The notes below the pieces were generated by a model that was not told the DNA's origin, ran no database searches, and worked only from the letters and a program-made list of their open reading frames with translations. Below are positions 1 through 4,962 of a DNA stretch of 4,962 nucleotides, in pieces (position 1 is the first letter of the stretch; every line of letters begins with the position of its first letter). The DNA comes from a virus (taxonomy: Duplodnaviria; Heunggongvirae; Uroviricota; Caudoviricetes). A program made the position numbers and the translations under genes. The stretch lies in IMG/VR virus record IMGVR_UViG_2778261301_000005. One strand, 5' to 3'.

Positions 1-310
1 TATCAGAAGTTAGATTGTAATAATTGGTATAAGCTGAAATTGACTTCTGGCATGCTTCAAGAAATTCCTGTGGATTCATTCCTAGTCTTGCTTGCTCTGT
101 GGTCAGAAAACGCTGTAAGAACTCATCTCCGCCAGGCATTTTTGTTGATTCTTGAAATGTTGCCATTTGTTTGATTGTGCCGCACATGCCAGCAAATTTC
201 GAAGTTATCATGAGTTCTTGCAGGCCTTTAAGATCGCCATTATCTGATTTTGGTTTGGCGAAAACTATTGTAGAGAAGAACAATATTAACAAAATAGCGA
301 TACGTTTCAT
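1..310 (-). CDS. Hypothetical secreted protein, 5' portion only (start at 308-310 on minus strand, ORF runs off the left edge, 103 codons visible)
   Basis: Manual minus-strand translation from the ATG (reverse complement of 308-310) gives MKRIAILLILFFSTIVFAKPKSDNGDLKGLQELMITSKFAGMCGTIKQMATFQESTKMPGGDEFLQRFLTTEQARLGMNPQEFLEACQKSISAYTNYYNLTSD with no stop down to position 1. The N-terminus has the shape of a Sec signal peptide (KR, hydrophobic core, VFA-K candidate cleavage site, no lipobox Cys). The ATG overlaps the mnt stop codon (ATGA overlap). An open frame of 310 nt is notable in AT-rich DNA. Absent from the ORF track, presumably because its stop lies outside the window. Confidence 0.55.
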   Translation of the reverse strand, partial: MKRIAILLILFFSTIVFAKPKSDNGDLKGLQELMITSKFAGMCGTIKQMATFQESTKMPGGDEFLQRFLTTEQARLGMNPQEFLEACQKSISAYTNYYNLTSD

Positions 311-558
311 TTTTCACTGTTGCCATGCATAGATTTTAATTTCTCAACCTCATGCTCAAGCTCTATCAACCGCGATGCTATAGTTGCAAGATCTAGTGCT
401 TGAATATGTTTATTTTTTTCAGTCCATGCCTCAAGTGCTGCTACCATCTCAGCATTTAATGAACGAGAATTAGCCTCAGCCAGTTCAATAAGACGTTCCT
501 TTATCTCTACAGGAAGCCTCAGATTCACTTGAGGGTTTTTGTACTTACGATCAGACAT
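307..558 (-). CDS. mnt: Mnt-like ribbon-helix-helix transcriptional repressor (83 aa)
   Basis: ORF-track protein MSDRKYKNPQVNLRLPVEIKERLIELAEANSRSLNAEMVAALEAW... Its N-terminal motif NLRLPVEIKERL...AEANSRSLNAEM closely parallels P22 Mnt (NFRMPMEVREKL...AEANGRSMNSEL, recalled from memory); the C-terminal half is coiled-coil-like, as in the Mnt tetramerisation domain. Same length as P22 Mnt (83 aa), and divergent from an Arc-like gene as in P22 immI. A possible SD (AGGA) lies about 7 nt upstream of the ATG on the minus strand. Confidence 0.85.
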   Translation of the reverse strand: MSDRKYKNPQVNLRLPVEIKERLIELAEANSRSLNAEMVAALEAWTEKNKHIQALDLATIASRLIELEHEVEKLKSMHGNSEK

Positions 559-663: not shown

Positions 664-804
664 ATGAAGGTAAAAACACTGCGTATGCCAGAGAAGCTAG
701 AAAAAATTCTTGAAGAAAAAGCAAAGGAAGAGTGTCGCTCATTCAGCGCAGAAGTAATTAAACGGGTGCTTGACAGCCTGAAGAGAGAGGGGATTACGGT
801 ATGA
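664..804 (+). CDS. arc: Arc-like ribbon-helix-helix repressor (46 aa); not in the supplied ORF track
   Basis: Manual translation: [46 protein letters not shown]. The motif LRMPEKLEKILEEKAKEECRSFSAEVIKRVLDSLKREG aligns position by position with P22 Arc (LRWPREVLDLVRKVAEENGRSVNSEIYQRVMESFKKEG, recalled from memory). A strong SD (GGAGGA at 654-659) lies 4 nt before the ATG at 664. The stop TGA (802-804) overlaps the next ATG (801-803). Confidence 0.85.
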   Translation: MKVKTLRMPEKLEKILEEKAKEECRSFSAEVIKRVLDSLKREGITV

Positions 805-1070
805 AGGTGTCATTGCTTGATCGTTCTTTACAATTTTTGTCTGGCGCAATCATTGTAGTTTGCTTGCTCGTGATTTTTACATCGTTAATCAATATGTATC
901 AATCAGGGGAACGATTGACAAAGACGATAGAGGAAAAAAAATCAGTCTCAAATTACGAAGTATCACATGCACATAACGATTTAGTAGAAAGCCTTGACCG
1001 TATTAACAAGAGGCTTGACGAGACAAATATGCTACTTAAGCAAATTCAAAATGAAGTGGAAAAACGTTGA
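801..1070 (+). CDS. Small hypothetical membrane protein (89 aa): one predicted N-terminal transmembrane helix, then a charged coiled-coil-like tail
   Basis: ORF-track protein; hydrophobic stretch [20 protein letters not shown] (about aa 14-33) followed by a K/E-rich heptad-like tail ([24 protein letters not shown]). Start overlaps the arc stop and its own stop overlaps a TTG at 1067, suggesting an operon. No family recognised. Confidence 0.55.
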
Positions 1071-2123: not shown

Positions 2124-4364
2124 ATGACAGATTCAATAAATGCCAATGTTGTAGTGAGTATGCCTTCGCAACTCTTCACTATGGCTCGTTCTTTTAAAGC
2201 CGTAGCCAATGGCAAAATTTATATCGGTAAAATTGACACTGACCCGGTAAATCCTGAAAACCAGATTCAGGTTTATGTGGAGAACGAAGACGGCTCTCAC
2301 GTTCCTGTTTCTCAACCAATCATCATTAACGCTGCTGGCTACCCTGTATATAACGGACAGATTGCTAAGTTCGTTACTGTACAAGGGCATTCTATGGCTG
2401 TTTATGATGCGTACGGTGCTCAGCAGTTCTATTTTTCGAATGTGCTGAAGTATGACCCTGACCAACTCAGGCAAGATCTTGCATCTCAAGGAGGTGTTAA
2501 TCTGGTAAACGGAGCTATCTCACAGGAAGATCTTGTTTTGCAGTCGATCACAAAAATTCCAAGTTATGATAATTCTAACGTAGTCCAGGCGTGGCGCGAT
2601 AGTGTTGCGACCTACGGGTATGTTTACTTCTCTAATCATTCAAAAAATCAGATGGTGTACACCGTACCGTCTACAGCTGCTAACGCTTCTTTCCTTGCGA
2701 ACAGTAAAGTAATCATTGATAAAAATGTCACCCTGAGATTCGACAGTGATCTGTACTCACTGTTTAAATCGTTGCAGTACGAGGGGGATGGTACGTTTGA
2801 ATTTACGCACCTGAACTTTAAAGCAACCGGTGGAGAAGTGGATTATCTGGCTAAGCAGGCTATCCTCAACCGAAACCCTATTCGCATGAAGCGAGTGGAA
2901 TGGTCAGATTGTAAAGTTTATTCCATAAATGGTGACACGTTCTTCTATGAAGGTGAAGTCACCATATCCTCAGATAGCGCAGCTATCTTCCCCTTAACTA
3001 CTGACCGTACAACAGGCCTGTTCGCACCAATAGATATTGGAGAGCATATTTCTGCACATATTCGCATGGAATCTCAGGCCGCCTCAGAAGTTGGGATTGT
3101 TTTGCGATGCTCTGGAGGTTGGATGATGTTCTATGGGGCACCAGGTGCTACACAGTGGTCTTATAGACAGAAACCAATTGGTGGTCCAGTAGCAGAAGGA
3201 ACTCCATTCCCGCTGCCAGGAGGTTTACTGTCGTACGCCCCGGGCAAAGCAACCGTTGGCGTATCACTGCAAGGTAAAAACTGGGCGCAGATAACGATGA
3301 ATGGCGTTGGGATACGTTTGCCCTTTGATACTGCTGATGTAGGGGATGTATACGAAGTTGGGTTTGTTGCACTGACCACGGCATCTGGAGGTTCTGCGCG
3401 TGTAACTGGATTATGCAGCTACACCTCTGATAATGGAGTGCACGGTAAGCCTCCACTTAATATCCTTATCCACGGTGATAGTACAGCTGAGGATTTCATT
3501 TCCGCGTTCAGCTCGTACATTCCGCAATTAATGGATGGAGCGAACGGCCACCGTTCACATAGCATTGTAAACAAGGCAGTTGCCGGACAGACAATGAGGC
3601 AACAGTTAGATCTCCTGAAGGCTCAGGGGCCGGGTGATGCTTACATCGTTATTATGGTTGCCGGAACTAACGAAGGGCAGGCAAACCAAAACGGCGATTA
3701 TATGGCGTCATTGATAGATGAGTTTGTCTTATATTGCAATGGCCTTGGTCGTATCCCTGTTTGGGTTGAGCCGTGGATGTGGTATAGCCAGTCATTTATT
3801 GGAGGGGCTGGCCAGCCATCTTCTAACTACGACGGTGTCGCAGAGTTGCGAGAAGCTGGTAAACGCCAGATGATGAAATATGGCAATAACGTCATTTGTG
3901 TAACAACAACTCACCAGCTCCCGGCCCCATATCCAGAGTATTTCAATACGCAATACGACCCACTTCTGCGTGATGACATTCACCAAAGCCAGTTAGGGTA
4001 TCGTCTGTATGCGGAAATTATCTGCTCTGCCATTATCGACTGGTGGTCGCGTGTTGATTACACGCCAAGAGCAGCTGTTCAATGGTGGGCTGGAACAAAC
4101 GTAACAGTACAGGAACCGTCAAGTTTAACTGCCAATTCAATTAATATTAAACTGGCAGCCACTTCATTTGCGAATGGCAATACTGTTCTAACGCTTCCGA
4201 GATGGTGCAGACCAAAAGTAACCAAAAATGTCCCTGTACCGTTCACTGCTGATGACGTTTCATTTGGCATGGCAATGGCTACCATTAATGCTTCAACAGG
4301 ACAAATATCGATTGAAGGGTCCACAACTACATCTCCAACGTTCTACATAGATGCGACATGGTAG
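2124..4364 (+). CDS. Tailspike protein (746 aa): P22 gp9-type N-terminal head-binding domain fused to a receptor-binding body containing an SGNH/GDSL-type hydrolase (predicted polysaccharide esterase/deacetylase) domain
   Basis: The N-terminal ~115 aa ([12 protein letters not shown]...[38 protein letters not shown]...[17 protein letters not shown]...NVLKYDPDQ) is near-identical in pattern to the P22 tailspike head-binding domain (recalled). SGNH motifs in canonical order: block [14 protein letters not shown] (G451-D452-S453, nt 3474-3482), block II VAGQT (G488), block III GTNE (G514-x-N516, nt 3663-3674), block [17 protein letters not shown] (D617-x-x-H620, nt 3972-3983). SD GGAG at 2112-2115. 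Confidence 0.9.
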
Positions 4365-4370
4365 TAAAAA

Positions 4371-4398
4371 CATGGAGGCAATACGCCTCCATGCTAAT
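4371..4398 (-). terminator. Perfect 9-bp-stem hairpin (CATGGAGGC-aatac-GCCTCCATG); on the minus strand it is followed by a T-run, giving a tI-like terminator for leftward int transcripts, and it may also stop tailspike transcription
   Basis: Stem 4371-4379 pairs with 4385-4393, loop 4380-4384. The plus strand has AAAAA (4366-4370) just 5' of the stem, so the minus-strand transcript has a U-run after the hairpin. On the plus strand no U-run follows (CTAATAAC). It starts 7 nt after the tailspike stop. Confidence 0.5.
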
Positions 4399-4569
4399 AA
4401 CTCAAATGCTCTTAAAATACTCTTAAGGAGATGATCAGCGCTTTTATTAACATCAACCATCTATGTGAGTTATAGGTTAATTATCTCCATGTGATGGCAG
4501 ACAAAACTGAGACAAACAAAGCTTTGTACTGGATTGCAAGGCTTTGTGTCATTCGATAGCTAAGGTGGG
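4398..4569. other. Candidate attP / site-specific recombination region between the convergent tailspike and integrase genes
   Basis: Non-coding and AT-rich, lying immediately 3' of an integrase gene, which is the lambda/P22 position of attP. Contains a perfect 12-bp palindrome ACAAAGCTTTGT (4516-4527), direct repeats CTCTTAA (4409-4415 and 4420-4426) and GCTTTGT (4521-4527 and 4541-4547). The core itself was not identified and no tRNA-like 3' segment was recognised by eye. Confidence 0.3.
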
Positions 4570-4583
4570 TCACTCCACCTTTT
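4562..4583 (+). terminator. Hairpin AAGGTGG-gtcact-CCACCTT followed by TTTT, overlapping the integrase stop codon; possible plus-strand terminator or RNA-processing structure
   Basis: Stem 4562-4568 pairs with 4575-4581, and T's run from 4580 to 4583. The T-run is short and partly inside the stem, so terminator strength is uncertain. Confidence 0.3.
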
Positions 4584-4962
4584 CATCAAGCCAATCAGCC
4601 CACCACTGCATCATTTCTCTGCGCTTATCCAGATACTGAGCATGGTTGTAAATCCCGCGCACAGATCCGCCGTTGGCATGTGCCAGTTGCACTTCAATGG
4701 CGTCAGCAGGCCATTCGTGCTCGTTCATAATTGTGCTGAATTCATGCCTGAATCCGTGACCGCTTTCCAGACCCTCATAGCCGATTTGTTTGATCACAAG
4801 CAATACCGCGTTCTCGCAGATTGGCTTTTTCTTATCGTTGCGCCCGGCAAAAACAAACTCTGATACTGGTTTGGTGATTGAGCTTTGAACCGCCCCGGGA
4901 ATCCTGGAGACTAAACTTCCTGAGAAAGAGGTAAACAGGATGACTAAAAATACTCGTTTTTC
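4570..4962 (-). CDS. int: Tyrosine recombinase / phage integrase, C-terminal part only (5' end beyond the right edge); P4-type C-terminal signature
   Basis: Minus-strand frame open from 4962 down to stop TGA (reverse complement of 4570-4572). The C-terminus GHGFRHEFSTIMNEHEWPADAIEVQLAHANGGSVRGIYNHAQYLDKRREMMQWWADWLDEKVE has the H-x-x-R box, a conserved Tyr region and the MMQWWADYLD-like tail typical of P4-family integrases (recalled). The ORF track lists only the TTG-initiated tail 4570..4803; I extended the frame by hand to the window edge. Confidence 0.8.
   Translation of the reverse strand, partial: EKRVFLVILFTSFSGSLVSRIPGAVQSSITKPVSEFVFAGRNDKKKPICENAVLLVIKQIGYEGLESGHGFRHEFSTIMNEHEWPADAIEVQLAHANGGSVRGIYNHAQYLDKRREMMQWWADWLDEKVE

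Follow-up and report, generated by a model that had tools for sequence, protein, structure and literature searches.

The window analysed here, a 4,962-nucleotide stretch that is the whole of contig NOMP01000100.1 in the draft E. coli assembly GCA_002518645.1, carries the right end of a P22-like prophage. A first-pass annotation had flagged nt 2480-3450, corresponding to aa 119-443 of a 746-aa protein, as a central tailspike region with no family that could be placed. Our main reading, to which we give a probability of about 65%, is that this is a P22-like prophage tailspike in which the beta-helix glycanase body has been replaced by a 627-aa esterase-type receptor-binding cassette recognising and deacetylating the O88 O-antigen.

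The features of the window are collected in Table 1. In complete genomes, the same gene arrangement adjoins tRNA-Arg/yfdC. Positions 307-1070 form an immI-like switch region, in which start and stop codons overlap where the 89-aa ORF meets arc on one side and the antirepressor gene on the other. The antirepressor starts at TTG 1067 in the ORF list and at 1133 in the recorded gene call, the latter giving a protein of 296 aa.

Table 1. Features of the window, predicted domains of the tailspike, and acyltransferase (AT3-SGNH) genes at related loci. Coordinates refer to the window unless a locus is named.
Feature	Coordinates	Strand	Basis or remark
Arc/Mnt-type repressor	307-558	-	
Arc-like ORF, 46 aa	664-804	+	
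89-aa ORF, hydrophobic N-terminus, without family	801-1070	+	
KilA-N/P22AR_C antirepressor	1067/1133-2023		
Tailspike, 746 aa	2124-4364	+	
P22-type head-binding (virion attachment) domain, aa 1-115	2124-2468	+	Pfam PF09008; Sf6 (7sg7) and P22 N-termini
Flexible linker, aa 116-138	2469-2537	+	pLDDT 34-49 (model residues 1-20); disordered
D1, compact alpha/beta subdomain, aa ~139-239	2538-2840	+	AlphaFold2 secondary structure, pLDDT 85-95
D2, predicted concanavalin A-like lectin/glucanase beta-sandwich, aa ~250-437	2871-3434	+	Predicted structure
Gly/Pro-rich stretch in D2, aa 338-367	3135-3224	+	Composition, model
SGNH/GDSL esterase domain, aa ~445-643	3456-4052	+	Motifs, predicted fold
Predicted C-terminal beta-sandwich, aa 660-746	4101-4361	+	Eight strands, pLDDT 93-97
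Integrase gene, 3' part	4570-4962	-	
AT3-SGNH gene	L005:6877-8664, L004:6871-9299, L031:5864-9382	-	
AT3-SGNH gene, IMG/VR loci			L014-L016, L018, L021-L025

At the level of sequence families, the first-pass annotation was correct in finding no home for the central region. A Pfam search of the 746-aa protein returned only the head-binding domain (PF09008, aa 4-114, E 2.5e-65), which aligns with the N-terminal structures of P22 and Sf6, and a sub-threshold Lipase_GDSL_2 match; nothing was found in aa 120-440, either in this protein or in 16 family members scanned one by one (no match at E<=1). PDB sequence matches to P22, Sf6 and other tailspikes end at aa 116-122, in agreement with the earlier remark that the region does not resemble the P22 beta-helix, and aa 120-746 alone gave no match to PDB sequences at E<=10. 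A profile of the central region built from 16 sequences produced only marginal PDB matches, to the beta-clamp (E 0.0014) and to the TRIM25 SPRY domain (E 0.13), and the sole PHROGs placement of the whole protein is phrog_17606, annotated as 'unknown function'. The central region is nevertheless kept across homologues down to 25-30% identity, which indicates a real folded module rather than a linker.

An AlphaFold2 monomer model of aa 120-746 (pLDDT 89.2, pTM 0.85) resolves this module. In the model, the flagged region is made up of two predicted domains, D1 and D2, separated by a short low-confidence hinge, and the predicted order along the chain is head-binding domain, linker, D1 alpha/beta neck, D2 concanavalin A (ConA)-like sandwich, SGNH esterase and C-terminal beta-sandwich. 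The varied N-terminal adaptors of homologues join the body within the linker. The structural check that had been suggested for aa 120-440 thus returned a ConA-like sandwich and a compact D1; a beta-helix or pectate-lyase body was rejected, since neither sequence nor structure gave such a match.

D1 has no Pfam match, and in PHROGs it matches its own family only. The borderline beta-clamp match of the central-region profile (E 0.0014) falls over D1 and corresponds to domain II of the sliding clamp (6dj8). In a distant homologue, P0094, the beginning of PF12708 (pectate-lyase-like) is matched very weakly (E 0.0065) close to the position equivalent to D1, and D1 itself contains a 'helix then YGYVYF strand' motif, which may resemble a beta-helix N-cap. 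Both fold searches with the central model matched mostly D2, and neither assigned D1. At the other end of the protein, where a trimerisation or binding module of ~110 aa had been suggested, about 100 aa follow the SGNH domain and include a confidently predicted beta-sandwich, possibly the distal tip or a trimerisation domain. Two proteins match it weakly: 9nxp from Pseudomonas phage Pa223 (E 0.021) and, in its C-terminus, the phrog_3639 minor tail protein (E 0.0025).

The predicted D2 is a curved two-sheet beta-sandwich like those of ConA-like structures. Its closest structural neighbours, at 6-15% identity, are the DUF1080 protein 3mep, C-terminal accessory domains of GH43 enzymes, CBM66 (4b1m) and galectins, that is, carbohydrate-binding or carbohydrate-enzyme accessory domains. 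D2 shares the ConA-like fold with these proteins, not membership in their families: in searches of 16 members against Pfam and of the profile against the PDB, it lies outside the named sequence families CBM66, DUF1080, Laminin_G_3, galectin, GH16 and PL7. Polar and aromatic residues conserved across its own family are D271, E307, H312, R328, W345, K350, S370, Y371, N393, E411 and Y433, with K350, S370 and Y371, near the Gly/Pro-rich stretch, being 94-100% conserved. This stretch, which the first-pass annotation had pointed out, is indeed present (43% Gly plus Pro, compared with 13.7% in the whole protein). A collagen-like or disordered linker was considered for it and rejected, since in the model it forms a strand (model residues 225-232) followed by a long ordered loop inside D2, at high confidence (pLDDT 90-97, model blocks 22-26).

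The lectin-type ConA-like fold predicted for D2 supports the earlier suggestion of a carbohydrate-binding or substrate-positioning domain, and we propose D2 as an O-antigen binding or positioning module, carbohydrate binding by D2 being what its modelled fold suggests. This fold is a generic one, adopted by enzymes (GH16, PL7) and by protein-binding SPRY domains as well, so that the fold alone is insufficient proof of glycan binding.

Directly downstream, the predicted model shows the three-layer alpha/beta/alpha fold of SGNH enzymes. The predicted catalytic residues are Ser453 (in GDS, nt 3474-3482) and Asp617/His620 (in DDIHQ, from nt 3972), with Gly488 and Asn516 forming the putative oxyanion hole. 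In an alignment of 47 homologues, GDS 451-453 is invariant, and G488, N516 (GTNE), D617 and H620 are at least 90% conserved. The Lipase_GDSL_2 match (aa 451-628) stays below the gathering score of PF13472 (19.6 bits, cut-off 32.9), which the more distant members P0085 and P0090 pass (52.6 bits). By analogy with characterised esterase spikes, this domain would be a deacetylase, and the group removed would presumably be an O-acetyl of the O-antigen.

Searching with aa 120-746 found 81 proteins, in which the 627-aa body is kept whole on different adaptors, including PF09008, PF18668 (TSP1/gp66 N-domain), PF03906 (T7 fibre N-domain), PF12571 (tail-collar) and Calx-beta. SGNH is the best conserved part (~60% identity in distant members, compared with 25-45% for the central and C-terminal parts). 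The central region by itself is rare: phmmer, run exhaustively with this region against 1.84 billion representative proteins, gave only 27 clusters. Of ten central-region matches scanned against Pfam, nine are true homologues, eight of which have a Pfam SGNH/GDSL domain directly downstream; in P0082 the SGNH domain is placed by length and match position only. The Calx-beta repeat protein P0087 was rejected as a homologue, its matches being repeated ones to the Gly/Pro loop only, and so was P0092, judged by the same repeated-match pattern. Among the full-length or near-full-length homologues checked, the central region never occurs without SGNH, which excludes an independent mobile CBM; with 27 clusters only, it is a rare obligate companion of this SGNH clade. 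A scan of GTDB species-representative genomes found no relatives, and a scan of IMG/VR found 19 loci.

Closely related proteins differ from the window protein in a domain-wise manner. In P0025, another P22-type spike, 66 of the 98 differences fall in aa 264-439 (D2), where ~38% of positions differ (66/176), and 16 in aa 706-739 of the C-terminal sandwich, which is thus partly hypervariable; only five fall in aa 440-705, which are ~98% identical. P0017, built on another adaptor, shows 73 differences, 53 of them in aa 121-234 (D1) and just three in aa 235-478. These clusters place recombination breakpoints at the predicted domain boundaries. Judged from these alignments, D1 goes with the adaptor side, and the exchangeable receptor unit is D2-SGNH-C-terminus. 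The replacement of one D2 allele by another is the pattern that would be expected for a specificity-bearing surface, short of proof.

The cassette also occurs outside E. coli at 29-90% identity, in Enterobacter (P0014), Shewanella baltica (P0066/P0071), Pseudescherichia vulneris (P0073) and Aeromonas phage phiA047 (L001). The 90% identity of the Enterobacter copy suggests that it was transferred between genera recently, or else that its host has an O88-like O-antigen. In Escherichia phage vB_EcoM_ESCO9 (OM386654.1; L002:2820-3177), an ORF annotated as 'endo-N-acetylneuraminidase' and the DNA just after it are a relic of this receptor-binding protein: a piece like aa 130-158 (59% identity) and the last 59 aa (93% identical) remain, and what lay between has been deleted.

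Which polysaccharide the spike might recognise is indicated by its hosts. The body (nt 2520-4364) was found by megablast in 12 of 5,426 complete E. coli genomes at nucleotide identities of at least 84%, and a sensitive blastn search added a thirteenth carrier, XJ55 (72% identity). In the carrier SRY149, the wzx and wzy genes of the O-antigen cluster bear the annotation 'O88 family'. The O88 wzy, at identities of at least 99%, is present in only 25 genomes (0.46%), which include all 13 carriers. For the 12 megablast carriers, before XJ55 was added, the hypergeometric P is 4e-30, or 2e-25 with the three clonal SRY strains collapsed. Three carrier lineages have been serotyped in the literature, as O88:H8, O88:H31 and O88:K+:H16, NADC1036 being recorded as O88:K+. 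The carriers have three different prophage backbones: a P22-like one at argW, one near yfgI whose lysis genes encode a holin and a GH19 enzyme, and a siphovirus with TipJ. With the body on three backbones, the association with O88 is not one of simple vertical inheritance. The NADC1036 assembly contains the same 800-aa SGNH tail protein twice, on the chromosome next to yfgI (NZ_CP076264.1, 2791565-2793967) and on a separate 38.7-kb record (NZ_CP076267.1, 2014-3666), possibly a phage-plasmid or a prophage that has excised and circularised.

Such an exclusive distribution suggests that the receptor is the O88 O-antigen rather than a conserved polymer like colanic acid or ECA. Since the E. coli carriers are all O88, the protein is most likely an O88 O-antigen-specific deacetylating tailspike; the presence of the prophages in O88 hosts is an association, short of proof of the receptor. 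The divergent D2 alleles of XJ55 (72% nucleotide identity) and HN257 (84%) are still found in O88 hosts, and D2 variation therefore does not map simply onto serogroup.

Acetylation is a recurrent theme around this gene. The O88 cluster contains two hexapeptide-type acetyltransferase genes, manB/manC, and dTDP-sugar genes that we take to be consistent with 6-deoxytalose. In many relatives, a gene for an AT3 (Acyl_transf_3) plus SGNH acyltransferase lies directly after the spike gene in convergent orientation, and is fused (595 aa), split or, in XJ55, disrupted by IS5. Seven of the 13 E. coli carriers have this gene, as do about 10 of the 19 IMG/VR loci, with non-P22 backbones among them. The prophage of the window is without it, having only 205 bp (4365-4569) between the stop codons of the spike and integrase genes. 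An esterase spike beside an acetyltransferase suggests an 'erase/write' pairing of acetyl groups on the same O-antigen. In its full form, which we consider speculative and on balance improbable, the two would be a matched pair acting on the O88 O-antigen and travelling jointly between unrelated backbones: an acetyl mark written by the prophage would block superinfection, the spike would erase an acetyl mark for entry, and the hypervariable D2 alleles would read different acetylation states. If so, the arms race would be over O-acetyl patterns within one serogroup, and not over serogroups.

In the mechanism that we favour, the spike, presumably trimeric, would recognise the E. coli O88 O-antigen, and D2, as a lectin-type sandwich packed beside the esterase, would bind or position the polysaccharide chain. 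The SGNH domain, using Ser453/Asp617/His620 and the oxyanion residues Gly488/Asn516, would strip O-acetyl groups while leaving the backbone uncut, and successive rounds of binding and deacetylation would lead the virion to the outer membrane, as described for G7C gp63.1. Two alternatives concern D2. It could be mainly a structural scaffold or spacer, as trimer core or SGNH platform, with no ligand role of its own and specificity residing in the SGNH cleft and the C-terminal sandwich. We think this unlikely, because a purely structural core should be conserved above all other parts, whereas D2 is the segment swapped between spikes that are ~98% identical elsewhere; moreover, its structural neighbours are carbohydrate-related, and its polar and aromatic set from D271 to E411 is conserved family-wide. 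D2 could also be an enzyme in its own right, a glycanase or lyase that uses the ConA-like fold as GH16 and PL7 do, making the spike a bifunctional depolymerase and esterase. The fold would accommodate such an enzyme, but the best structural matches (3mep, GH43 C-terminal accessory domains, CBM66 and galectins) are non-catalytic, and Pfam and PDB searches gave no sequence match to any glycoside hydrolase or lyase. GH16 or PL7 identity was rejected, the GH16 ExDxxE and PL7 signature motifs being absent from D2, and we regard a catalytic D2 as very improbable.

A further alternative concerns the target. SGNH enzymes are promiscuous towards esters (lipases, PAF acetylhydrolases and sialate esterases are among them), colanic acid is acetylated by WcaB and WcaF, and NADC1036 has a K antigen on record, so the substrate could be another acetylated surface polymer (K antigen, colanic acid or ECA) or a lipid, with only an indirect association with O88. 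However, a polymer shared throughout E. coli, as colanic acid and ECA are, cannot account for the finding of all 13 carriers in a serogroup making up 0.46% of genomes, on three backbones and with at least three H types, and we regard a target of this kind as very improbable. P22-like phage tailspikes characteristically use the O-antigen (PMC10408124), as in our preferred reading of an O88-directed spike.

The findings bear on several points. Receptor-binding proteins that act as esterases have only recently been recognised as an alternative to depolymerases, few of them being characterised, and here is a P22-type tailspike with no beta-helix at all. The domain map covers a rare family so far labelled 'unknown function', and E. 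coli O88 is a concrete receptor candidate that could be of use in serogroup-specific detection or phage engineering. Near-identical spikes differing only in the lectin-fold domain offer a natural experiment on its role in specificity, and the frequent O-acetyltransferase neighbour suggests that acetyl marks on the O-antigen are the contested feature.

The tailspikes of P22, Sf6 and HK620 (gp9 family) share a homologous head-binding domain with the present protein (E 1e-48 to 7e-65), the same genome position between the immI/ant region and the integrase gene, and the O-antigen as presumed receptor. Their body is a right-handed beta-helix endoglycosidase, in contrast to the predicted lectin-fold, SGNH and beta-sandwich domains found here, and membership in the P22 tailspike family is through the adaptor domain only. 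The closest functional parallel is G7C gp63.1, an O-antigen deacetylase required for infection, which does not cut the backbone and probably acts processively (PMC10743462); by this analogy, the present spike most likely works by removing O-acetyl groups from the O88 O-antigen. The SGNH likeness to gp63.1 (PDB 4QNL) is at the level of fold only, with no sequence homology (no PDB match at E<=10), and gp63.1 contains nothing closely like D1 or D2. A beta-sandwich likewise stands beside SGNH in CE2 (2wao/2waa), YxiM (2o14), PbeAcXE (7tog) and Ape1 (4k3u), but these carbohydrate esterases are soluble and of bacterial or fungal origin rather than parts of a virion, and the alignments of ~180-208 residues cover essentially the SGNH domain, any likeness of their sandwiches to D2 lying outside the alignment.

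SGNH receptor-binding proteins of Klebsiella prophages and of Acinetobacter and Pectobacterium phages form a widespread class, some being active on pNP-acetate or polysaccharide (PMC13123978, PMC9569702, PMC11058221), and those of the Klebsiella prophages are active esterases (PMC13123978). Possum gp66 has a receptor-binding-like C-terminal domain after SGNH (PMC9569702), and some Acinetobacter siphophages have ConA-like and SGNH domains in adjacent fibre proteins (PMC11058221). These proteins belong to other sequence families and use other adaptors, whereas the present spike has both domains, ConA-like and SGNH, in a single polypeptide joined to a P22 head-binding domain. The concept of an esterase spike is established; set against it, this protein is a proposed deacetylating form with a fused lectin-fold domain on a P22 adaptor, and offers specific leads in the O88 assignment, the domain-swap alleles and the esterase/acetyltransferase neighbourhood.
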